NCBI GenBank assembly: GCA_964352335.1
Contig: CAYGRO010000001.1
Location: 31,830 to 95,829, forward strand
Length of the DNA: 64,000 bases
Reading direction: 5' to 3'
DNA from: an uncultured Gammaproteobacteria bacterium
Lineage (GTDB): Bacteria > Patescibacteriota > Patescibacteriia > VMEV01 > CAYQCH01
The translations under genes and the position numbers were made by a program. The stretch's first letter is position 1. The number at the start of each line of letters is the position of its first letter. The notes beneath the pieces were generated by a model. That model was not told the origin of the DNA. It did no database searches and worked only from the letters and a program-made list of their open reading frames with translations. Shown piece after piece: positions 15,307 through 48,250 of the stretch.

Positions 15307-15738
15307 ATGGACAGCATTATTTACAACCTCTCCAGCAACGAATGGTACAACATCGAGTTCACCACTAACAAGGTAGACGAGTCGGACACTCGGCGAAAGC
15401 ACATGTTCAGGGTAGTCCTGATCATCACAACCATCCGACAATTTCTGGATGTCGGTATCCCCATGATCCAGAAGGCTATCGTCGATATGGGCATCGACGA
15501 CGGCGACGACTGGAACGAGATCGGAAAAAACCTGGTCTCGAAATTCGGTGAAACGTGCGAGCACGTCCTCGGGTTCTTCGATTCTCGAGAAACCGAGCCC
15601 GAAGCGATCAAAGAGGCACTGGAAAGCTTCAAGCTGAACCTGAACTGTGAAGACACTCGCGCAGTGACCTTCATGTTCCAGCCACAGCTCTACGCGGCAA
15701 TGAAGGAAGCGGTCGACTTAACGACCCCACACATCTAG
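15307..15738 (+). CDS. Hypothetical protein within a higher-GC patch
   Basis: A 143-aa ORF with local GC clearly above its surroundings. It is preceded by a ~700-nt stretch with no convincing ORF. Confidence 0.4.
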   Translation: MDSIIYNLSSNEWYNIEFTTNKVDESDTRRKHMFRVVLIITTIRQFLDVGIPMIQKAIVDMGIDDGDDWNEIGKNLVSKFGETCEHVLGFFDSRETEPEAIKEALESFKLNLNCEDTRAVTFMFQPQLYAAMKEAVDLTTPHI

Positions 15739-17967: not shown

Positions 17968-18675
17968 ATGAATACAACCGAACTTCGTTGGTCTACTTTC
18001 GAACAAAACGTTATCAACCAAGCTAGGGAGATGATATCTGATAACCTAGAGGATAAAACCGTCATCCCCCCTGACTCAAGAATTCACATACTCTCACCTG
18101 GAGAGTTCAACAATACAGTCATCAAGCCTGAACAACGTGGGTATGTAGATGCAATTGTAAGCAAAGAGCATCTCTACATTAAACGAACAAGAACAAAGTC
18201 TCGTTTTATCCAACTCTTCTCGCATGAACTCCTTCACTTCGTTTCATTTTTAGGCCCTGGAAAAGTAGGAATGAATCGTATCGTTGGCTCGCATCGATAC
18301 TTCGAAGGCTTCGATGAGGCCGTGACGGAGCTGTTTGCGATTAACTTTCGTCAGCTACTGGCCAGGCGTATCAGTGCTCACCACATGACACAACGAGCCT
18401 TGAGAGACACGCATGCTTATGTCCCCGCAATCCTTCTTGTAAAAGCTCTTATTGCAAGGTCAGACAAAGAAGGAACGAAGCAGATTCCACACAGGCTCTA
18501 TCGTGACTACATTGAAGGAACTCAGCATGTCCTAGCTTCCTTCAACTATCACATACCTGGATCCTGGCAAGCCCTCAAACATATGGGCAAGTCAGATGAA
18601 GAAGCTACCCGTGTCGCAACAGAGCTCGGCCTCAATGAAGTGCTTGAAGAACTTATGCTCATCAGGACAAACTGA
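17968..18675 (+). CDS. Hypothetical HExxH-motif protein (putative zinc metallopeptidase-like) in a moderately GC-enriched patch
   Basis: HELLH motif; GC of about 46%, above flanking DNA. Confidence 0.45.
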   Translation: MNTTELRWSTFEQNVINQAREMISDNLEDKTVIPPDSRIHILSPGEFNNTVIKPEQRGYVDAIVSKEHLYIKRTRTKSRFIQLFSHELLHFVSFLGPGKVGMNRIVGSHRYFEGFDEAVTELFAINFRQLLARRISAHHMTQRALRDTHAYVPAILLVKALIARSDKEGTKQIPHRLYRDYIEGTQHVLASFNYHIPGSWQALKHMGKSDEEATRVATELGLNEVLEELMLIRTN

Positions 18676-19120: not shown

Positions 19121-19144
19121 TGGCTCCGAGGGTGGGACTCGAAC
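19121..19144 (-). repeat. Inverted partial copy of the tRNA-Asn 3' end (T-arm plus acceptor: GTTCGAGTCCCACCCTCGGAGCCA)
   Basis: A 22/24-nt match to positions 19961-19984, on the opposite strand, 160 bp upstream of the tRNA gene. Confidence 0.7.
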
Positions 19145-19240: not shown

Positions 19241-19333
19241 TTTTTTACGAAATGACCGAAAGGCGGTCATTTTCTGATAGAAAAATCTGGCTTGTGGGCT
19301 CCGAGGTAGCTCAGTGGTAGAGCAGTTGGCTGT

Positions 19334-19946
19334 GAAACACTTATATCTGTCCCCATTCTTTATAACTAAAGTCTGGTATGGCAGAGAAAAGAACCTATCG
19401 CGACCGCGCAGAATATCTCAAAAAAGCTGTTGCAAAACGTAGACGAAAGTTACGTGAACAAGCTGTTGAGTATATGGGCGGTAAATGTCAACGCTGTGGC
19501 TATAAAACTTGCATCGAAGCATTAGATTTCCACCATCTTGATCCTCGTGAAAAAGAATTTGGAATATCTGCATCAGGAATGACTCGTTCTTGGGAACGTA
19601 TCAAAACTGAGCTAAATAAATGCATCATGATTTGTGCAAATTGCCATCGCGAAGAACATGCGAAAATTAAACGCAGCTTTAACGAGTAATCGTTATCGAA
19701 AATTGGGTGAATTCGGGGAAGCCTGTTAAATGGTAATCCCGAGCCAATCCTTCGCCGGGAAGTTACTCCCGCAAGCAAGCTTAGCCAAAAATGGCAGGCC
19801 TGCCTGCCGTAGCTTTAGCGAAGGCAGGTGTAGAGACTAGTAGGTGAGTCCCAACAATAATCCTACAATAGCGCCCAATACCCCATAGCTTTATGCGACG
19901 GGGTAATGAGATAGTCCACCCCATTATGAAAATAATGGATAATGTG
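19334..19946 (+). other. Group I intron (IC3-like) in the tRNA-Asn anticodon loop, between positions 35 and 36
   Basis: The core contains GGTGTAGAGACTAG and GAGCCAA..CTTCG..CCGGGAAG, matching the Azoarcus/cyanobacterial tRNA-intron catalytic core. The 5' exon ends in U and the intron ends in G. Confidence 0.75.
19378..19689 (+). CDS. HNH homing endonuclease encoded within the group I intron
   Basis: CQRCGYKTC…DFHHLDP…N…CANCH gives CxxC / HH / N / CxxC-H HNH motifs. The ORF lies inside a peripheral intron region. Confidence 0.8.
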   Translation: MAEKRTYRDRAEYLKKAVAKRRRKLREQAVEYMGGKCQRCGYKTCIEALDFHHLDPREKEFGISASGMTRSWERIKTELNKCIMICANCHREEHAKIKRSFNE

Positions 19947-20001
19947 TAACCAATTGGTCGTGGGTTCGAGTCCCACCCTCGGAGCTTGCTAGCTAGATTC
20001 T

Positions 20002-21122: not shown

Positions 21123-21188
21123 CTCCCTCTCTTGAAAAGGGAGCCTGCCTGCCGGCAGGCAGGGGTGCCCCTTCAGGGGCGAGAGGGT
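21123..21188. repeat. GC-rich palindromic repeat module (CCCTCTC..GGGAG, CCTGCCTGCC-GGCAGGCAGG, GCCCC-ttca-GGGGC)
   Basis: Perfect 10-bp inverted repeat. The family recurs at 306, 32701, 33281, 37949, 46533 and inside the intron at 19787. Confidence 0.65.
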
Positions 21189-32691: not shown

Positions 32692-32700
32692 TTCGTGACC

Positions 32701-32776
32701 CCCTGCCTGCCAGCAAGCCCCTCGTCCAATCCACTTTGTGGATTAGACGTTTCCCTCCCTTTTCAAGAGAGGGATT
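32701..32776. repeat. GC-rich repeat module containing an inverted-orientation copy of the CCCTCTC/GGGAGGG hairpin
   Basis: tccctcccttttcaagagaggga is the reverse complement of the motif at 33285; a degenerate CCTGCCTGCC is also present. Confidence 0.55.
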
Positions 32777-32845
32777 TTCATTAGTCGAAGTTTCTGATAT
32801 AATGATCTAAGAACTCCCCACAATATCTTGCTGGGGTGTTTTTTT

Positions 32846-33265
32846 ATGTCTCTAAAGTTTTCAGAATTTAAGTTATCAGATCTTTATTATAAACAGTTAA
32901 GTGAAAAAGGTTATTTAGAACCAGTGAGTAAGTCATTTATCGAATCTGTACGCGTTTTACGAAAAAACATGACTCCTGCAGAAAAGATTGTTTGGAGTTT
33001 TTTACGAAGAAAGCAACTTAAAGGTATAAAATTTCTTCGTCAACACCCAATCAATGGGTATGTTGTTGACTTTTATAGTAGAGAAAAATCACTTGCAATC
33101 GAAGTAGATGGATCTATTTATCAAGATTATTTTGTAAGAATAAAAGATATAGCAAGACAAAGACTTTTAGAACAATATGGTGTGCAGTTTTTACGATTCA
33201 AAAATGAAGAAGTCTATGAAAATATCGAACAGGTCATTCAAACAATAGAAGAAACCATAAGCTAA
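32846..33265 (+). CDS. DUF559 / Vsr-like endonuclease-domain protein
   Basis: …PAEKIVWSFLRRKQLKGIKFLRQHPINGYVVDFY…LAIEVDG… matches the DUF559 restriction-endonuclease-like fold. Confidence 0.6.
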   Translation: MSLKFSEFKLSDLYYKQLSEKGYLEPVSKSFIESVRVLRKNMTPAEKIVWSFLRRKQLKGIKFLRQHPINGYVVDFYSREKSLAIEVDGSIYQDYFVRIKDIARQRLLEQYGVQFLRFKNEEVYENIEQVIQTIEETIS

Positions 33266-33280
33266 AGTCTCTTTACTGCT

Positions 33281-33360
33281 CCCCTCTCTTGAAAAGGGAG
33301 GGAAATGTGCCGTGCCCACAGAGCACAAGCGAGGGAGCTTGCCTGCCGGCAGGCAGGGGT
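33281..33360. repeat. GC-rich composite repeat with all three modules (CCCTCTC-GGGAGGG, GTGC..GCAC, CTTGCCTGCC-GGCAGGCAGG)
   Basis: Closest copy is 306-366 plus 21139-21160. Confidence 0.65.
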
Positions 33361-33420
33361 TCATATTTGACAAACCTCATCCAAAAGCACAAGATAAAAA
33401 TGGAAGAAGGAGGTTTCCAA

Positions 33421-34089
33421 ATGACTCGGATTTTACTTATAGCAATCGTCGTTTTCTCAGGGATTTGTGCAAGTGGGTGTGGCCCGCTCATGAAGTCTCT
33501 GTCAAAAAAGCCTGGTCCCTCAAAGCCATTCATCGTGGCTCGAGCGACCAACGGCAATACCGCAGGAGTGACAACTCAGTCGACTTCACCCCTGCGCTTG
33601 TTCGAAGGTGGCATTGGCACCGTTACCACCATGTCACTCACGTTCAACAAGCTCATCTACACGCTCCAGTCGGAGATGAGCCCTAACGAACTAAGAGAGC
33701 GTAACCCTCGCGTGACGATGCGGTTTGGAAACACCACCCGAACGGTAGACGTCCAAATCTCTGAAACGGGAATTCATGAGGTCCAATTCCTCAACCTCAA
33801 TGTCCGACTGCTCGGGAATATCAACCAAGAGCAACCGCAGATCAATACGATCGAAGACATCGAGTCCCTCCCCGACTACGCACAAGTTCTCGCCCTCGGC
33901 CTCTTCATCAACGGCGTACCACATGAGGACGACGGGACGAACTTTCTCCTAACCCTGGTCAAAGCTGAGACAGAGGTCCAGCAAATCCCAGGACAATTCC
34001 TCACCGAAGAGGAAAAGGAGCCAAATGAGTGGCCTCTCAATAGCCCCGGGTACAACGTGACCTGGGTCAACGAAGAACTCGCCAAGTAA
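33421..34089 (+). CDS. Lipoprotein, hypothetical, high-GC (about 50%)
   Basis: AGGAGG-N9-ATG; signal peptide plus lipobox (ICASGC). GC far above the flanks. Confidence 0.55.
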   Translation: MTRILLIAIVVFSGICASGCGPLMKSLSKKPGPSKPFIVARATNGNTAGVTTQSTSPLRLFEGGIGTVTTMSLTFNKLIYTLQSEMSPNELRERNPRVTMRFGNTTRTVDVQISETGIHEVQFLNLNVRLLGNINQEQPQINTIEDIESLPDYAQVLALGLFINGVPHEDDGTNFLLTLVKAETEVQQIPGQFLTEEEKEPNEWPLNSPGYNVTWVNEELAK

Positions 34090-34125
34090 CACCAACCCAG
34101 GAGGACGCTTGCTCCGGCATGCATC

Positions 34126-34160
34126 GCAGGTCGTACTTCAATGTGCGACCTGCTTTCTTA
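34126..34160 (+). terminator. Terminator GCAGGTCG…CGACCTGCTTTCTT
   Basis: An 8-bp stem followed by a T-rich tract. Confidence 0.5.
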
Positions 34161-34239
34161 TTGACAAAATCTTCAAAAATAGGCAATATACTCATACAAG
34201 AAAACGTTGCCTCGCAGCGTTTTTACATATCTCAAATAT

Positions 34240-34315
34240 GGCGATGTAGCTCAGGGGTTAGAGCGATGCCTTCATAAGGCAGAGGTCGGTGGTTCAATTC
34301 CACCCATCGCTACCA
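34240..34315 (+). tRNA. tRNA-Met(CAU), elongator; possibly tRNA-Ile2
   Basis: GGCGATGTAGCTCAGGGGTTAGAGCGATGCCTTCATAAGGCAGAGGTCGGTGGTTCAATTCCACCCATCGCTACCA. The 1-72 pair is a G·U wobble rather than a mismatch. Confidence 0.8.
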
Positions 34316-35212: not shown

Positions 35213-35350
35213 AAGCGCTAATGGGGTCTGGGGGAATTGCGCTTCTGAGAACTAAATAGATGTGCAAATCAAGCAAGAAGCTCCCAAGTTCCCCCAGCGG
35301 GTTTTTGCTTCGTTTTTGCCCGCCCAAAAATGAAGGCCCGCGCGGCGAGC
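35213..35350 (+). ncRNA. Conserved ~138-nt structured element, copy 2
   Basis: See 21224-21362; conserved blocks and a compensatory helix. Confidence 0.6.
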
Positions 35351-35439
35351 GCATTGACCAACATTCTTTAATAAGAAAACATACACAAATAGAAACACCA
35401 CCGCCTTACTCTTCTCTTGCGAGTTTTCAGGGGTGGTGT

Positions 35440-36912
35440 TTACCGGCCGTTAAGCCAGTTGCGAAAGGAAGTAAAGAAGCTGGTGGGCTTCAATTTGATT
35501 TCGCTAGAGAGGCAAGCTTCGAGGGCTTGCTTCATCTCTTCGGGGGTCTTGTACCTTTTTTCTGGGCTTTTCTCCATCGCTTTCTTGAGGACCTTACAGA
35601 ACCTCTTCGTCAGCTTTGGTGACCCCTCGGGCAAAAGGTCATTTGGATGCGGAGGCTTCCTATAGAGCACCGCCTTGAAGAGTTCACCCAGATTCTTGCC
35701 ATGGAATGGCTTTTGCCCTGTTGCAAGGTAGAACAATGTCCCCCCCACAGAGCAAAGATCTGACATGATCGTCACCCGCTGACCGTCCACCTGCTCAGGG
35801 GACATGTAGTCGGGTGTGCCGATGATCAACCCGGCGATGGAAAGGGTTTCCGTCTCCGTATTAATCGTGACAAGCTCTTCAATGACGTCCAAAGAAACTC
35901 CTCCACCGTCTCGCTTGTCCTCGGCATTACTTCGAGAGCAGCCATAGTCAAGCAATTTGATGGTACCGTCACTCTGGATCACGATGTTTTCAGGCTTGAT
36001 GTCACGATGCACAATTTTCAGCACATCGTGAGCAACCTGTAGCACCGAGCATAACTGAAGCCCAATATGAATAGCCTCCACTTCAGAAAAGGCTCCCTTG
36101 CTCTGGACAGCTTGTTTTAGGTTTTGGCCCTCAACAAACTCTTCAACAGAAACAAGTCCAAAGTCCTCTACCAAAAGCGCGATTGGACGCACCGAGTAGG
36201 GAGAGAGAATCTTTCCCTGCAACTCGAAGGCCCGACTCACGCGCTTACACAACTCGAGCACGGACTCAGAGTCGCCAACGGTATTGAAGTGAATTTTGAT
36301 AGCCACGTCTTGCTGTGTCGCCAGGTCAAGACCACGAACAACTCGGCCGTTGCTTCCAAGACCGATTTGCTCAATGAGCTTGAAGCGATCGTGCAAGACA
36401 GCCTTTTTCGCGATGGCGATATTGATACGACCAGTGACCAACTTTGCAGCAAGGTCACATGACTCCACTTGGACAGAGTCATTCACCGTATCAGCCCCAT
36501 CACAGTCAGCGAGATGTGCAGCAACCTCATCGACAACAGGCGTCCCAATGGACACCACCTCGGACGGGTTGTTCACAACAACTTCAACGGAGCTAGGAAT
36601 TTGACTCCGCGAAACCAATCGCACAGTCCCACCTGTATCGCTCAGCCTTGCCAGCTCTCGCCGACTAAAGCGATCTGAAGCAGTGCGAGCAATCTCCTTA
36701 GCAACATTGGGCTCTTCTGGCTTCTTCAAATGACCCTGGTTGGTGATCGAAAGAAGAAGCTTGCACTTCGCACACTTGAATTCGAGAATCCCCTCCTCGA
36801 TCATGGGGTTAATGTCACGAACCCAAGAATAGCGCTTAGCCGTTTTGGCCGGGCTACACCGTGGACACGGTTGATACAATGGCACCTGAGGGCGCCGCTT
36901 TTTGTCAGTCAA
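35440..36912 (-). CDS. Hanks-type Ser/Thr protein kinase with an N-terminal zinc ribbon; high GC (about 52%); TTG start with a strong SD
   Basis: HRDIKPENI, DYG and GTPDYMSPE motifs. N-terminal CPRC…CAKC. AGGAGG lies 7 nt upstream of TTG. Confidence 0.75.
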   Translation of the reverse strand: MTDKKRRPQVPLYQPCPRCSPAKTAKRYSWVRDINPMIEEGILEFKCAKCKLLLSITNQGHLKKPEEPNVAKEIARTASDRFSRRELARLSDTGGTVRLVSRSQIPSSVEVVVNNPSEVVSIGTPVVDEVAAHLADCDGADTVNDSVQVESCDLAAKLVTGRINIAIAKKAVLHDRFKLIEQIGLGSNGRVVRGLDLATQQDVAIKIHFNTVGDSESVLELCKRVSRAFELQGKILSPYSVRPIALLVEDFGLVSVEEFVEGQNLKQAVQSKGAFSEVEAIHIGLQLCSVLQVAHDVLKIVHRDIKPENIVIQSDGTIKLLDYGCSRSNAEDKRDGGGVSLDVIEELVTINTETETLSIAGLIIGTPDYMSPEQVDGQRVTIMSDLCSVGGTLFYLATGQKPFHGKNLGELFKAVLYRKPPHPNDLLPEGSPKLTKRFCKVLKKAMEKSPEKRYKTPEEMKQALEACLSSEIKLKPTSFFTSFRNWLNGR

Positions 36913-37041
36913 AGCACCCTCCTAAGGTACGTGGTTGAAAAGAACAATCCGACGATTGAGAATACAATTCTTACGCCGATCCGTCAATACTATAACCAAA
37001 ACTAGGGGTTTTACGCAACTTTTGCTAAAATAGTTCTACTT

Positions 37042-44618: not shown

Positions 44619-44981
44619 CTAGCCAGCCTTTTCCAGAACCTCCATGGTCGTTTGGAACCGTTCTTGGAGAGGACGCTCTTCCATGTCGTTGCTGACCAAG
44701 ATCACGGCGATCTTGATCAACTCACTGATGTCGCCCAACTCGTGTTGGTGCTCAGGATTGACCCACTCGAACGTGATTCCAAGATCCTGCGCGAGATAGA
44801 ACTGCTCGCGTATGTCCAATTTGAGCGGGTTCTTGATATACCCTACGTGCACCATGCAAGCAAGTCGGCCAAATGCCTTTCGCTCAATGTCTTTTTCGAA
44901 GACACGCTTGTATCTACCAGTCTCTGCCATTTTCAATCCCTTTCTGGGGTAATAGGAAACGGAGATGTCAACGAGTGACAC
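44619..44981 (-). CDS. Hypothetical protein, high-GC patch
   Basis: A 120-aa ORF with GC well above flanking DNA. Confidence 0.4.
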   Translation of the reverse strand: MSLVDISVSYYPRKGLKMAETGRYKRVFEKDIERKAFGRLACMVHVGYIKNPLKLDIREQFYLAQDLGITFEWVNPEHQHELGDISELIKIAVILVSNDMEERPLQERFQTTMEVLEKAG

Positions 44982-45113
44982 CTCCGCATAATTTGGTACT
45001 CTGACCGATTTCAGCGCTTTGCGCAGTCGATACAGAGTTTCCCTTGCCAGGACAAGCTTGGGGATGTGAGGAGTATAGCTGAAGAGAGAGAAAAGTCAAT
45101 TTAAAAAAAACAA

Positions 45114-45217
45114 AAATAAAACCCCACAAAATGCGGGGACTTATTTTCCTAAATACTTGGTGGACCTGAGGCCTCGAGGCCCCACCTCCTCGCCCCTCGA
45201 GGGGGAGGCGCTCTACC
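45114..45217 (-). repeat. Pseudo-tRNA-Ala 3' fragment plus terminator hairpin, repeat unit 1 (degenerate)
   Basis: tggtggacc…cctcctcg-CCCCTCGAGGGG-aggcgctctac plus the hairpin AAAACCCCACAAAATGCGGGGAC. Confidence 0.65.
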
Positions 45218-45219
45218 TG

Positions 45220-45489
45220 TCAATAATAGATATGATCTGTATCATTTTCTTTAATCCATTCTATTTTCGTTTTAAATCCTTTGGATGATTTTATAAATTT
45301 TTCATAATTCATTGCTTCTGTTTTTGAATCAAACATTTTATAACTAATCAACTTCAATGGCCTTCTGCCTTTAGTAGATTTCGTTAAACCTTCATTATGA
45401 GCATATACTCTGTTTTTAATATCCGTCGTATAACCAATATAGTACCTATTGTCCTTAAGTGATTTTAAAATGTATACGTAATGAATCAT
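45220..45489 (-). CDS. Small GIY-YIG nuclease-domain protein
   Basis: YVYILKS…YIGYTTD…R…HN matches the GIY-YIG core. 89 aa. Confidence 0.7.
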   Translation of the reverse strand: MIHYVYILKSLKDNRYYIGYTTDIKNRVYAHNEGLTKSTKGRRPLKLISYKMFDSKTEAMNYEKFIKSSKGFKTKIEWIKENDTDHIYY

Positions 45490-45504
45490 AGATTATGTCA
45501 AAAA

Positions 45505-45605
45505 TAAAACCCCACAAAATGTGGGGACTTATTCCTAAATACTTGGTGGACCCGACAAGACTCGAACTTGCCACCTCCTCGCCCCTCGAGGGGGAGGCGC
45601 TCTAC
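45505..45605 (-). repeat. Pseudo-tRNA-Ala 3' fragment plus terminator hairpin, repeat unit 2
   Basis: Retains the T-arm and acceptor identical to tRNA-Ala, but the anticodon loop is replaced by the palindrome CCCCTCGAGGGG. Confidence 0.7.
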
Positions 45606-45677
45606 ATATTAATTGATTTTCATTAGAAATTCTTAGAAAACAAAAACCCCATGGCTGGGGCAATGATTATCCACACT

Positions 45678-45753
45678 TGGTGGACCCGACAAGACTCGAA
45701 CTTGCCACCTCCTCGGTGCAAACGAGGCGCTCTACCAGATGAGCTACGGGCCC
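45678..45753 (-). tRNA. tRNA-Ala(UGC)
   Basis: Reverse complement GGGCCCGTAGCTCATCTGGTAGAGCGCCTCGTTTGCACCGAGGAGGTGGCAAGTTCGAGTCTTGTCGGGTCCACCA, with the G3·U70 Ala identity pair. Confidence 0.9.
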
Positions 45754-46632: not shown

Positions 46633-47616
46633 CTAGCCGGCGTAGTTGCCGTTGTTGCCGTCACCGAAGCTCTGACCGTAGATGGTCTTGGGCTCGGTCT
46701 GGAGCATGCCCTTGAGGAAGCGGTCCGTGTCGCCGACGGCCTCGTCGAGGTTGGCGATGATCGAGTCGATCAGGCGGGTCGACTGGTCGGTGTCGACGAG
46801 CTGCTGACGGATCATCATGAGGGCGAAGTACTTGCCACCGATCCGAGAGAAGATCGCGCGGTTGTAGCCGAAGGGCTCGAGCTTGAGCGAACCCTCGACC
46901 AGGCTCTCGCTGATCGCCTGGAACTGGCGGGTCCCGTAGGTCACGGGGGTCCAGGTCAGGTCGCAGCTGGAGAGGTTGTAGTTGGCCGTCACGAAGACCG
47001 GGATGGCCACCTTGGCACCCTGCACGACCAGGAACGTCACGACGTCCTGCTCGATGAAGGTGTTGGGGTCGAAGTCGATCACGCGGGTCGTGCTGCCGAT
47101 GTTGACCTTGTCGTTGTCGACGACCGTGACGTGCTGGAAGCGCACGTTCTTGATCGCCTTGGTGATCGAGCCGCCGTTCAGCAGGTTCAGGAAGGAGATC
47201 AGCGAGTTGTCGAACTGCTCGGTCAAGCCCATCTGGGCAATGACCCAGGCAGGGATGGTGTTGAACACCATCTTGGTCTTGGAAGCGGCGCCGATGGAGC
47301 GCTTGATCTTGAGGACGTTGGCCGGAGTGATCAGGCCGTACTCCTGCAGCTGCTCGAGGAAGACGCGCGGCGTCATGTTGGTGTCGCTGTCGACCTCGAA
47401 GACGTCGTGCAGGATCTCCGCGTTCTGGGTGGAGATCGTGATCTGCGTGGTCACGTTGCCGTTGTTCGGCTTGGAGGTCTTGAGAGGGGTCTCGGTGACC
47501 GCGGTGATCGTGGTGTTCGTGCGATCGCTGACGCGCTTCGCCATGGAGGTGAAGGTGTCGACGATGGCCGCAGTGAAGAGAACGAGAACCGGGTGCGAGA
47601 GGGTGTGAGCGATCAT
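46633..47616 (-). CDS. Hypothetical 327-aa protein with extreme GC (about 60%) and GC3-biased codon usage
   Basis: GGAG-N6-ATG. The high GC coincides exactly with the CDS. A second 327-aa ORF in another frame (46661-47644) is an artefact of GC richness. Confidence 0.55.
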   Translation of the reverse strand: MIAHTLSHPVLVLFTAAIVDTFTSMAKRVSDRTNTTITAVTETPLKTSKPNNGNVTTQITISTQNAEILHDVFEVDSDTNMTPRVFLEQLQEYGLITPANVLKIKRSIGAASKTKMVFNTIPAWVIAQMGLTEQFDNSLISFLNLLNGGSITKAIKNVRFQHVTVVDNDKVNIGSTTRVIDFDPNTFIEQDVVTFLVVQGAKVAIPVFVTANYNLSSCDLTWTPVTYGTRQFQAISESLVEGSLKLEPFGYNRAIFSRIGGKYFALMMIRQQLVDTDQSTRLIDSIIANLDEAVGDTDRFLKGMLQTEPKTIYGQSFGDGNNGNYAG

Positions 47617-48250
47617 TGAAATCTCCGTTATCTGACCAGTCCATATTTCAGGACATCTTGGTCAACAGTTGCGTATGTCGAGAGAGCCCAATGCTCCCCC
47701 AACCCCTGGTGAAGCTAATTAACTCCGAAGTGGAGATTACTAACCCCGACCTCTTCAGCTAACGAGAATAAAGCTGAAGGGATCGGAGTTATCAGCTTGT
47801 CCGAAGACGAGCGGAAAACTCCTTACCCCAAAGTGTAATTGGAAAGAGCGCAGACTTTATAAATATAGAGTCTGTAATAGAAGTTTACGAGAAAGAAAAC
47901 TTGTATTACCCACCCTCAAAGCAAATTTTTTGGAAAAAAAAAAGAAGCTCACTGGTTGTCGACTGAAGAAAACCAGGGCCCTCCTCACATTCTTTGCTGA
48001 TCAGCAAAGTTATTCATTGCTCATAAAAGGCAGTCGACACCCTTCAATATGCAAATAGATAACTTCGCTTACCAGTCAATAATGTGAATGAACTTTCCAA
48101 AATTTGCTACGTGTTAAGTTAAATACTACCAGCACAAAAACTTGTTGTCAATATATGACAACAGTAATTAATTCTCCTAAATTTCTAGCTATCAACTCCC
48201 CGCAGATCGAAGCTTCAGCGAAGACGTGTGGATAACTTTTAGAAAATCGA

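Follow-up and report, generated by a model that had tools for sequence, protein, structure and literature searches.

PknG of Mycobacterium and Corynebacterium is a soluble kinase that carries a metal module of the rubredoxin-like kind (PMC8546545, PMC5448819), and the GC-rich genes of AT-rich genomes are customarily read as products of recent horizontal transfer. Both serve here as points of comparison for a predicted kinase gene (positions 35440–36912, reverse strand) within a 64,000-nucleotide stretch of bacterial DNA (contig CAYGRO010000001.1, hereafter the window). Further parallels concern translation. In E. coli, mRNA structure across the whole ORF sets translation efficiency (PMC5318159). 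In Bacteroidia that are blind to the Shine-Dalgarno (SD) sequence, specialised ribosomes read a rare SD-bearing gene (PMC9976891, PMC7797042); in Flavobacteriia, rpsU is such a rare SD-bearing, specially translated gene (PMC9976891, PMC7797042, PMC13000453). The genes described below resemble the E. coli case in that their structure extends over the whole ORF, is bounded by it and exceeds what composition predicts, but here it is tied to a two-fold shift in third-position GC content (GC3) and to an SD, is confined to one small set of genes and has been kept through deep divergence. They resemble the Flavobacteriia system in that ordinary genes lack an SD and a few carry a strong one, although the SD-bearing genes here are accessory genes and not rpsU, and promoters of the TTGACA/TATAAT type suggest that the host is probably not a member of the Bacteroidia.

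For the two genes that can be traced between lineages, the kinase and a predicted lipoprotein, the GC-rich signature appears to be old, inherited, actively maintained and tied to the SD and to ORF-wide mRNA structure. Were the same to hold genome-wide, these genes would offer a natural instance in which synonymous sites are under strong selection, or a fixation bias, specific to particular genes. They would also form, after that in Bacteroidia, the second example of a rare set of SD-dependent genes within a translation system poor in SD sequences. A further consequence would be that composition-based calls of horizontal gene transfer can mislead in small AT-rich genomes.

Architecture of the kinase and its described relatives

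The kinase gene (490-residue product, TTG start, TAA stop; GC 0.513, GC1 0.57, GC2 0.39, GC3 0.58) encodes a C-terminal catalytic domain (residues ∼145–470; positions 35503–36480, reverse strand) whose initial annotation as a Hanks-type kinase is borne out by a match to Pfam Pkinase (PF00069) over residues 178–461 (E-value 5.9e-35; score 121.4 bits, the curated cut-off being 31.7). The AF2 model of this region has a pLDDT mostly above 90 (residues 150–470) and contains a lead-in helix (residues 145–168) and an activation-segment insert of ∼25 residues after the DxG motif. The best Foldseek match is PknB (5u94; TM-score to target 0.91, rmsd 2.1 Å), and the best phmmer matches in the PDB are Stk1 and PknB (4eqm and 9ymt at 4e-28, PknB at 2e-26). 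In common with kinases of the PknB/Stk1/StkP type, the domain has the Gly-rich loop GxGxxG (G184, G186, G189), the VAIK Lys (K206; Lys in 40 of 40 aligned kinases), a complete catalytic loop HRDxKxxN (H302, R303, D304, K306, N309), the DxG Asp (D322, in DYG), the (A/S)PE Glu (E373, in SPE), the αF Asp (D385) and the αH/I Arg (R453). It departs from PknB and Stk1 in the insert, in the replacement of DFG by DYG or DWG, and in the loss of the αC Glu. At the position of this Glu the three aligned orthologues have Ala, Ala and Ser, as opposed to Glu in all 37 of the other kinases; Ser was also read by eye there in P0133, and a conserved E230 lies two residues past it. Because the αC Glu is missing, phosphotransfer activity is uncertain.

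Unlike PknB, PrkC and StkP, the protein carries its kinase domain at the C-terminal end, ∼20 residues short of the C-terminus, and has no transmembrane segment, no PASTA or other sensor domain and no further Pfam domain. Near the N-terminus lies a four-Cys, zinc-ribbon-like module (residues ∼13–56; positions 36745–36876, reverse strand) with the motif YQPCPRC...C(A/K/V/S)(K/G)C, which is without a Pfam match and to which, AF2 confidence being low there, we assign a putative ribbon fold on the motif only. The four Cys and nearby residues are kept in all four orthologues, as is the TTG start codon; both the CPxC...CxxC ribbon (here CPRC...CAKC) and the TTG start of the initial annotation therefore stand. 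The Ser/Arg-rich linker that follows (residues ∼57–144; positions 36481–36744, reverse strand) was previously put at ∼150 residues and measures ∼95–120. It is poorly conserved apart from the motifs RTASxxFSRRELA and TVRLV..QIPSSVEV, has an AF2 pLDDT below 50, and shows a flat GC content of ∼0.5 at each of the three codon positions; its counterpart in the orthologue L009 is rich in Arg, Pro and Ser, with many RxxS motifs. A HMMER match of the kinase N-terminus to the 5176-residue protein P0132 (13 stretches, 4e-31) was put down to composition and discarded, since P0132 consists of acidic, Ser-rich repeats.

As modeled, the protein is a soluble Ser/Thr kinase of the Hanks type and PknB fold, with an N-terminal four-Cys ribbon and a disordered Ser/Arg-rich linker. 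Judged by sequence, zinc ribbon, phosphorylatable linker and a Hanks domain lacking the αC Glu together make up a new architecture, known from four lineages. The kinase presumably autophosphorylates its RxxS-rich linker and phosphorylates cellular targets. Its likeness to PknG is architectural, both being soluble Hanks kinases with a Cys4 metal-binding module and a disordered, phosphorylatable N-terminal segment. Of the 413 sequence matches to the kinase in the PDB, the best 60 do not include PknG, and the differences are several: the order here is ribbon-linker-kinase, CPRC and CAKC lie in sequence ∼95–120 residues upstream of the kinase domain and not directly beside its N-lobe, CPRC and CxxC take the place of two CxxCG, and the TPR domain is absent. 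The best HMM score from any library was obtained with the PADLOC profile PD-T4-6 (1.2e-53), but the match spans the generic kinase domain only and is thus not specific. Single-gene defence kinases (PADLOC PD-T4-6 and mad6; Stk2-type) resemble this one in being encoded by a stand-alone gene with, as predicted here, tightly repressed translation, as one would expect of a potentially toxic kinase, whereas the neighbors in the present case are housekeeping genes (S11, DUF5654, TspO) and not defence genes.

Composition, mRNA structure and SD usage of a GC-rich gene class

The kinase is one of six stand-alone ORFs in the window that, as first described, are GC-rich among low-GC flanks. The window as a whole has a GC content of 37.6%, and 30 of its native ORFs have a GC3 of 0.247±0.041 (at most 0.33), whereas GC3 is graded over the six ORFs (0.95, 0.74, 0.65, 0.63, 0.58 and 0.44). 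The five others encode the predicted lipoprotein (222 residues; 33421–34089, forward strand; GC3 0.63, SD AGGAGG), an acidic protein of 143 residues (15307–15738, forward strand; GC3 0.74), an HExxH protein of 235 residues that is the weakest member of the class (17968–18675, forward strand; GC3 0.44), a protein of 120 residues with a GTG start (44619–44981, reverse strand; GC3 0.65), whose SD and start codon lie within a 12-bp hairpin, and an ORFan of 327 residues that is the extreme member (46633–47616, reverse strand; GC 0.61, GC3 0.95). The third positions of this ORFan comprise 206 C, 105 G, 17 T and no A, such that no codon ends in A, and its amino-acid usage is native-like. It has zero homologues among 5.8e9 proteins, phages and plasmids, and AF2 run without an alignment gave an unusable model (pLDDT 32). 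Apart from a weak match of the 15307–15738 product to PHROG 27230 (4.5e-5), the five ORFs have no usable match in Pfam, PHROG or PADLOC. A scan for further small members of the class returned spurious overlapping ORFs only.

The GC excess of all six ORFs resides in silent or unconstrained sites: GC1 (0.50–0.57) and GC2 (0.30–0.39) are native-like, FYMINK/GARP usage is the same as in native genes, and CTC is at least as frequent as CTG in five of the six, as it is in native genes. Two mutational or coding explanations were rejected, namely adenine-specific (DGR-like) mutagenesis, because A3 is below T3 in the kinase only and not in the other ORFs, and codon optimisation for a mammalian host, because NCG codons are freely used. 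The earlier view that the elevated GC is confined to the ORF applies to the leader of the kinase, where the adjoining 130-nt region has 37% GC; it does not extend to the GC-rich terminator hairpins found 3′ of the GC-rich ORFs or to 46633–47616, whose GC-rich patch reaches ∼230 nt into its own leader. Homing-endonuclease-like genes (DUF559, GIY-YIG, HNH) and tRNA fragments occur near three of the patches, and the window also encodes the competence protein DprA.

RNA genes often form the GC-rich islands of AT-rich genomes, and the 46633–47616 ORF has no call in the NCBI record; the patches might accordingly be suspected to be chimeric joins, or spurious ORFs in GC-rich DNA that is non-coding or holds RNA genes. 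Such an artefact is next to impossible. Both the S11/kinase junction and the junction of the 46633–47616 ORF with its native neighbor (contig L005) recur in a Logan assembly made independently from run ERR3534985, so the patches are not assembly chimeras. Orthologue sequences come from four other samples, three-base periodicity is strong and protein sequence is conserved. An Rfam scan of the whole window found no RNA family within the GC-rich patches, which are therefore not RNA genes.

Coding regions of the class are also folded more stably than their composition predicts, as measured by a z-score of the coding-region fold against synonymous shuffles that preserve codons and dinucleotides. 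The kinase scores −6.1, −4.8, −3.0 and −6.05 in its four lineages, the lipoprotein −4.2 in the window and −2.6 and −4.6 in its relatives, the ORFan −2.8, and g2, a gene of the same class found in relatives of the window lineage, −3.8 and −5.1; the small ORFs are weaker (−1.5 for 15307–15738, −1.5 for 44619–44981 and −1.3 for 17968–18675). Native genes average −0.59 (sd 1.0, n = 27), and the difference between the two groups is significant (Mann-Whitney p = 3.6e-6). The excess persists when shuffling is confined to local 50-codon blocks; the antisense strand shows it far less strongly. Embedded REP-like palindromes were considered as its source, and none were found. The position of the structure is mostly unconserved (mean SCI 0.41, mean alignment z ∼−0.9, few significant windows).

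The same genes stand out in translation initiation signals. No SD (duplex ΔG > −6) is present at 64 of 67 low-GC3 ORFs, and a strong SD occurs at any candidate start in only 2 of 53 native ORFs, whereas the SD duplex reaches −10.7 kcal/mol for the kinase and −12.4 kcal/mol for the lipoprotein (Mann-Whitney p = 1.4e-4 for SD energy, GC-rich versus low-GC3 ORFs). The sequence AGGAGG is found at these two genes only, the other four ORFs having a weaker GGAG, AAGGA or AAAGG, and no upstream motif other than T-runs is common to the GC-rich genes. The earlier description of the SD as host-like is wrong, because the host is essentially SD-less. A literature search on GC3-rich gene classes or SD usage in CPR/Patescibacteria returned nothing relevant.

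Inheritance of the kinase and lipoprotein genes

In searches of 5.8e9 and 1.84e9 proteins, the close relatives of the kinase were three orthologues only, L002 and L003 at 62–64% identity and L009 at 40%. They adjoin S11 and/or DUF5654 in two lineages and TspO in the third. Kinase GC3 across the lineages is 0.58, 0.51, 0.58 and 0.70 compared to 0.22–0.35 in the flanks, with the highest value in the most distant lineage, L009. Orthologues of the lipoprotein (L007 and L008) share 65–66% identity and have GC3 values of 0.48 and 0.64, and upstream of the gene L008 carries the same DUF559 gene and hairpin repeats as the window. The gene g2 adjoins the lipoprotein in two relatives and is absent from the window. 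A search of GTDB genomes for relatives through the S11 neighbor yielded an unrelated Christensenella match only.

On this comparative basis of three or four lineages represented by short contigs, silent sites have diverged deeply. Four-fold sites in the kinase interior are identical at 29–31% of positions (26–27% expected) and those of native genes at 39–42% (30–32% expected), and native four-fold divergence between lineages amounts to ∼1–2 substitutions per site. Because silent sites are near saturation, the GC-rich composition represents a steady state.

The initial annotation had proposed repeated capture of compositionally foreign single genes, and the scattered, single-gene character of these units, unlike their neighbors in composition, is indeed confirmed. 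Under this explanation, single-gene cassettes would have been taken up recently or repeatedly from GC-rich, SD-using donors, with GC and SD as donor features not yet erased. GC3 and SD both depart from the host, every unit possesses a promoter and a terminator of its own in the manner of a phage moron, units such as g2 are individually gained or lost, homing-endonuclease-like genes and tRNA fragments lie nearby, and the ORFan has a GC3 of 0.95. A donor with a GC3 of 0.6–0.95 should, however, also raise GC1, GC2 and GARP usage, according to the known relations between genomic GC and codon position, and these are native-like. The sole close relatives of the kinase (three orthologues) and of the lipoprotein (two) adjoin the same native neighbors in sister lineages with nearly saturated silent sites, conservation extends to leaders and promoters, and no donor-side homologue was found among the 5.8e9 and 1.84e9 proteins. 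The short direct repeats predicted to flank the patches are at chance level (longest 7–9 nt; null mean 8.5, 95th percentile 11), no integrase or transposase was recognized among ∼45 ORFs scanned against Pfam or NCBIfam, and no sign of an integron cassette was seen, in that no repeat family is common to the patch flanks and the downstream hairpins are gene-specific and terminator-like. We regard capture as quite unlikely overall; for the kinase and lipoprotein, comparative sequence evidence from synteny and steady state refutes it, the outcome that the initial annotation had itself named as refuting. The ORFan, with no A-ending codon and no homologue, may well be a recent import, and the three small ORFs could have been either captured or inherited. 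Phage morons and horizontally acquired islets remain a useful comparison as autonomous promoter-ORF-terminator units with a composition unlike that of their neighbors, but here there is no prophage, the two genes tested have long resided beside the same neighbors, only silent sites deviate, and integration scars are absent.

A much older acquisition, by the ancestor of the clade from a donor of very high GC3 with slow, unopposed drift toward host composition, would fit the graded GC3 of the class (0.95 to 0.44), which resembles a time series, and the Namib lineage, which shows a net loss of GC (30:13 and 11:6) and a lower GC3, indicating that maintenance is not uniform. At ∼0.3 substitutions per site per lineage, we estimate that an ancestral GC3 of ∼0.85 could have left 0.58. 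Native four-fold sites instead indicate ∼1–2 substitutions per site between lineages, at which a two-state estimate leaves ∼15–37% of the ancestral excess and requires an ancestral GC3 above 1. Changes inferred in the window lineage and its sister are balanced, 59 AT>GC against 45 GC>AT where decay to a GC3 of 0.25 predicts ∼1:4, but the lower GC3 of lineage N biases these parsimony counts toward AT>GC and, because silent sites are near saturation, they are not independent evidence. Furthermore, the most distant lineage has the highest GC3, under amelioration GC1 and GC2 would be expected to trail GC3, where the opposite is observed, and the excess structure on the sense strand would go unexplained. 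Together these points make an ancient, unmaintained acquisition improbable.

The proteins of the GC-rich genes evolve faster (62–66% identity) than most of their native neighbors (83–94% for S11 and DUF5654, 72% for TspO). Such fast-evolving accessory genes might be recombination hot spots subject to GC-biased gene conversion or to a local mutational bias, with G/C-biased repair raising GC at all unconstrained sites. The raised GC at all three codon positions of the unconstrained linker is consistent with such a process, as is the mismatch between kinase identities (68% for N-J and 63% for W-J) and the flank tree, which places W and J closest. The strongly conserved gene ends and flanks could anchor recombination, and the fixation bias implied is only moderate (B ∼1.8, an estimate). 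However, gene conversion predicts neither the SD, nor strand-specific RNA structure, nor the sharp limits at the CDS, the 37% GC of the region beside the kinase included, and the absence of A-ending codons in the ORFan would demand a very strong bias. We consider it unlikely as the principal cause. The same conserved ends and flanks around a saturated interior, and the same conflict with the flank tree, could also reflect recurrent allelic replacement from an external GC-rich pool (phage, plasmid or partner organism), with the ends and flanks as homology arms and DprA encoded in the window. Searches turned up no member of such a pool: both families, that of the kinase and that of the lipoprotein, are confined to these lineages, and PHROG gives a generic kinase match only. 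Amino-acid usage is native-like and the lipoprotein lacks the conserved-ends pattern, all of which renders allelic replacement very improbable.

Expression elements and proposed selection on the mRNA

A putative σ70-like promoter (TTGACG-17-TATTCT; positions 36959–36987, reverse strand) was identified by consensus scan upstream of the kinase. Sites of this type are not more numerous in the scan than expected from shuffled sequence, whereas the architecture is kept in L002 and L003 and, as TTGACG-17-TAGTCT, in L009, consistent with a promoter function. The short leader takes part in a hairpin predicted to sequester the SD (positions 36882–36930, reverse strand; −22.9 kcal/mol), in which the SD GGAGGG is paired, the TTG start lies in the loop and the 3′ arm corresponds to codons 6–12. 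Each of its 23 pairs is retained in three genomes, none showing covariation, and 80% of the synonymous sites in codons 1–20 are frozen compared to ∼15% in the interior; the hairpin is not conserved in L009.

The explanation that we favor, tentatively and at somewhat less than an even chance, is that these are long-resident genes under selection at the RNA level. The kinase would have been inherited vertically, and not recently captured, in a small clade of AT-rich bacteria comprising at least four lineages. It would act as an autonomous unit, composed of the σ70-like promoter, a short leader with a hairpin-locked AGGAGG and a weak TTG start, and a structured terminator, and would belong to a class of stand-alone genes, six of whose members lie in the window and one or more others in relatives. 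The class would be marked by G/C at silent or unconstrained sites, by an SD in an SD-less genome and by coding regions folded beyond their composition, mainly on the sense strand. Selection on the mRNA may keep these coding regions structured, such that silent sites stay GC-rich against AT pressure. A message so structured would probably be unable to use the default, SD-independent initiation of the host, which would operate on open, AU-rich leaders, and would therefore depend on the SD. For the kinase, translation would further require the SD hairpin to open, making its expression low or conditional. The causality could also be reversed, with foreign GC-rich sequence acquiring structure secondarily.

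A bolder form of this RNA-level selection, possible but doubtful, is that an SD-independent bacterium maintains a small regulon of GC-rich, structured mRNAs that are initiated via the SD only, their GC3 being held by selection on mRNA architecture and not by ancestry. Translation of these mRNAs would await access to the anti-SD or an unlocking of the message, with specialised ribosomes, stress, temperature and salt as conceivable triggers, and the kinase, with its hairpin-locked SD, would be the most tightly gated member.

Directly past the stop codon of the kinase lies a terminator-like 3′ element (positions 35395–35439, reverse strand) consisting of an 11–12 bp stem, an apical part and a U tract. 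Metagenome scans with the kinase alignment and with the pattern of this element returned no matches. The apical part, GAAAA-CUC-NNNN-GAG-AAGAGUA, is conserved, and predicted folding energies of the element in the four lineages span −19.5 to −25.7 kcal/mol, with z between −3.9 and −6.7. Its stem sequence in L009 differs from that in the other three lineages, with the pairing retained.

GC-rich coding sequences and their silent sites

The window is a bacterial chromosome segment of 37.6% GC whose genes include TopA, DprA, RelA/SpoT, ParA/ParB, an S11 DD-carboxypeptidase, an ECF sigma factor, and six tRNAs. The 16S rRNA lies outside it; a CPR-like host would fit the gene content and the presence of DUF5654. 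Native GC3 is 0.247±0.041 (30 native ORFs, maximum 0.33), whereas six stand-alone ORFs exceed this range: the kinase (35440–36912, minus strand; GC3 0.58, GC 0.513), the lipoprotein (33421–34089, plus; 0.63), an ORF at 15307–15738 (plus; 0.74), an HExxH ORF at 17968–18675 (plus; 0.44), an ORF at 44619–44981 (minus; 0.65), and an ORFan at 46633–47616 (minus; 0.95, third positions C 206, G 105, T 17, A 0). The initial annotation's description of GC-rich ORFs amid AT-rich flanks is thus borne out. The patches are real, since their junctions with native neighbors recur in independent Logan contigs (run ERR3534985) and Rfam detected no RNA family within them, and we give an artefact next to no weight.

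The ORFan encodes 327 aa without a single A-ending codon and has an amino-acid composition typical of the AT-rich host. No homologue was found anywhere, and the NCBI record contains no call for it. Its 230-nt leader (47617–47850) is also GC-rich and hairpin-rich.

In all six ORFs the GC excess is confined to silent sites: GC1 (0.50–0.57), GC2 (0.30–0.39), and FYMINK/GARP usage lie within the native range. Given the established dependence of codon-position GC on genomic GC, genes from a genome with GC3 of 0.6–0.95 are expected to show higher GC1, GC2, and Gly/Ala/Arg/Pro content. The native-like values therefore argue against recent capture, which we regard as improbable. CTC is used at least as often as CTG in five of the six ORFs, and native genes are alike. 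The poorly conserved kinase linker has ∼0.5 GC at each codon position and is now Arg/Pro/Ser-rich in the most distant orthologue; hence the push toward G/C affects all unconstrained coding sites and is not limited to codon choice. Biased gene conversion or a local mutation bias is an unlikely explanation, if slightly less so than capture.

Long residence and steady-state composition

A search of 5.8 × 10⁹ proteins gave just two close relatives of the kinase (61–63% identity), with the next matches at 29%; an exhaustive HMMER search with its N-terminus added one orthologue, P0133, 40% identical across the whole protein. In comparisons resting on three or four lineages and short contigs (the Namib kinase and lipoprotein contigs, L002 and L007, both come from one Namib salt-pan study), the kinase keeps its neighbors, S11 and/or DUF5654 on L002 and on L003 of a third lineage, and TspO on L009, the contig of P0133. 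Kinase GC3 there is 0.51, 0.58, and 0.70, against 0.22–0.35 for neighbors. The lipoprotein has two orthologues (65–66% identity; GC3 0.48 and 0.64), and upstream of that on L008, from the third lineage, the DUF559 gene and the hairpin repeats recur. Kinase and lipoprotein are old residents. Foreign genes, perhaps repeatedly captured as single-gene cassettes, had been proposed initially; for these two genes, shared neighbors and steady GC3 across lineages contradict that proposal, and no flanking repeats, integrases, or attC-like repeats were found, a further point against recent capture. Capture may still account for the four ORFs that lack known orthologues, above all the ORFan. Recurrent replacement from an outside pool appears very improbable.

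Both lipoprotein orthologues are followed by a GC3-rich gene, g2 (0.62 and 0.74), which the window lacks. This membrane-protein gene, with a GTG start and an AAGGAGG Shine-Dalgarno (SD) sequence, lies between lipoprotein and tRNA-Met (L007:861–1800, L008:867–1677; window 34089–34240). The window junction falls inside TTGACAAAA, common to both promoters; the sequences suggest that g2 was lost through short homology. Public annotations appear to mis-start both resident genes: the kinase entry (P0001) has 454 aa and begins at an internal Met, which cuts off the zinc ribbon, and the lipoprotein entry (P0129; 33289–34089) has 260 aa, reading through upstream palindromic repeats.

Within the kinase interior, 29–31% of four-fold sites are identical between lineages, against 26–27% expected from composition (39–42% against 30–32% for S11, TspO, and A2M), corresponding to ∼1–2 substitutions per site, a rough value from near-saturated sites. 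Such near-saturation implies stationarity. Passive amelioration, in which the excess decays from a richer ancestor, is accordingly doubtful, more so than capture: by our two-state estimate (native equilibrium 0.25) only ∼15–37% of an ancestral excess would survive, so that the present GC3 of 0.58 demands an impossible ancestor. Three-taxon parsimony, whose counts depend on composition near saturation, gives 59 AT>GC against 45 GC>AT changes on the window and third-lineage branches, where decay predicts ∼1:4; the Namib lineage, lowest in GC3, shows net GC loss (30:13 and 11:6). Kinase GC3 is a steady state, not a leftover, and the implied change in fixation bias compared with native genes is moderate (B ∼1.8, our estimate).

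Translation initiation and mRNA folding

The SD sequences had been called host-like; the opposite holds, since 64 of 67 low-GC3 ORFs have none, and only 2 of 53 carry a strong SD when every candidate start within 40 codons is considered. Strong SDs precede the kinase (−10.7 kcal/mol), the lipoprotein (−12.4 kcal/mol), and g2 (AAGGAGG or GGAGG), and the remaining four GC-rich ORFs are intermediate (Mann-Whitney p = 1.4 × 10⁻⁴ for GC-rich against low-GC3 ORFs). TopA (24007) is one of two SD-bearing native exceptions. A native ATG typically follows T-rich or CT sequence, and native promoters are TTGACA/TATAAT-like.

Predicted folding was compared with shuffles preserving protein, codon counts, and all dinucleotides. 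In the window, Namib, and third lineages, z-scores were −6.1, −4.8, and −3.0 for the kinase (−6.05 on L009) and −4.2, −2.6, and −4.6 for the lipoprotein; g2 gave −3.8 (Namib) and −5.1 (third), the ORFan −2.8, and the three small ORFs −1.3 to −1.5, against a native mean of −0.59 (sd 1.0, 27 genes; Mann-Whitney p = 3.6 × 10⁻⁶). The excess persists when shuffling is restricted to 50-codon blocks, and the antisense strand shows far less of it; this points to RNA pairing, including G-U, rather than DNA palindromes. The GC-rich coding sequences contain no long inverted repeats. Positional conservation of structure is mostly absent (mean SCI 0.41), significant only in kinase nt 181–360 and two lipoprotein segments.

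We tentatively favor a long-resident, autonomous gene class whose mRNAs are selected for structure, although this reading falls somewhat short of even odds. We infer the cause of GC3 maintenance as follows: selection for structured mRNA would keep silent sites GC-rich and make initiation SD-dependent, while the host default would be initiation on open, AU-rich leaders without an SD; expression of the class may be low or conditional. Precedents exist for both elements, as translation efficiency in E. coli is set by structure across the whole ORF (PMC5318159), and in SD-blind Flavobacteriia specialized ribosomes read rare SD genes (PMC9976891, PMC7797042, PMC13000453).

The kinase unit and nearby repeats

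A conserved promoter-like site (TTGACG-17-TATTCT) precedes a ∼40-nt kinase leader with a conserved U-rich motif, and AGGAGGG lies 5 nt ahead of a TTG start kept in all four lineages. In the window, Namib, and third lineages the SD is predicted to pair with codons 6–12 (15 bp, −22.9 kcal/mol); none of these pairs varies, and 80% of the synonymous sites there are frozen, against ∼15% in the interior. This SD-sequestering hairpin and the TTG start could add further restraint on expression. The 130-nt spacer between the divergently oriented S11 and kinase genes (window 36913–37041, L002:1515–1642, L003:318–446) is ∼90% identical across these three genomes despite their near-saturated silent sites, implying dense regulatory constraint. 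Directly 3′ of the stop, a predicted hairpin retains pairing on L009 with a stem sequence different from the other three; its conserved apex (GAAAA-CUC-NNNN-GAG-AAGAGUA) is followed by a U tract. Beyond it, the window (35260–35360, minus) carries additional GC-rich hairpins, such as GCTCGCCGCGCGGGC with a T tract after it; L002 lacks them and L003 has different ones. The spacer between kinase and DUF5654 is indel-prone.

The protein combines a Cys4 ribbon (C16, C19, C47, C50), shared by all four orthologues, with a disordered linker bearing RxxS-type motifs and a PknB-fold catalytic domain; it has no membrane or sensor domain. Core catalytic residues are complete except for the αC Glu: this clade has Ala or Ser at a position where all 37 other aligned kinases have Glu. 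The best-matching defense model (PADLOC PD-T4-6, 1e-53) matches only the generic kinase domain.

Elsewhere, a tRNA-His(GUG) including the extra G-1 (19290–19988, plus) appears split by a ∼600-nt group I intron (Rfam RF00028, 75.8 bits, 19623–19938) holding an HNH-type endonuclease ORF (19378–19689); ARAGORN detects the tRNA only after in silico joining of the exons. The T-arm and acceptor end of this tRNA (19964–19985, plus) recur as a perfect inverted copy of 22 nt (19123–19144, minus) ∼150 nt upstream of the 5′ exon; the copy resembles a tRNA 3′ fragment that a rearrangement or an integration left behind. The 3′ 41 nt of tRNA-Ala(TGC) (45678–45753, minus) are perfectly duplicated at 45541–45581, and repeats at 45111–45224 and 45499–45613 (spacing 389 bp) flank a small GIY-YIG ORF (45220–45489); the region 45111–45753, adjoining the GC-rich ORF at 44619–44981, may be a scar left by an element that integrated at tRNA-Ala. 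A GC-rich palindromic intergenic repeat family (CCCTCCC..GGGAGGG and GCCTGCCGGCAGGC) occurs at 308–360, 21124–21166, 32696–32775, and 33282–33363, and upstream of the lipoprotein in L007 and L008. Copies in inverted orientation lie on either side of the gene for DUF559, a Vsr-like endonuclease (32828–33265), an arrangement conserved in relatives.
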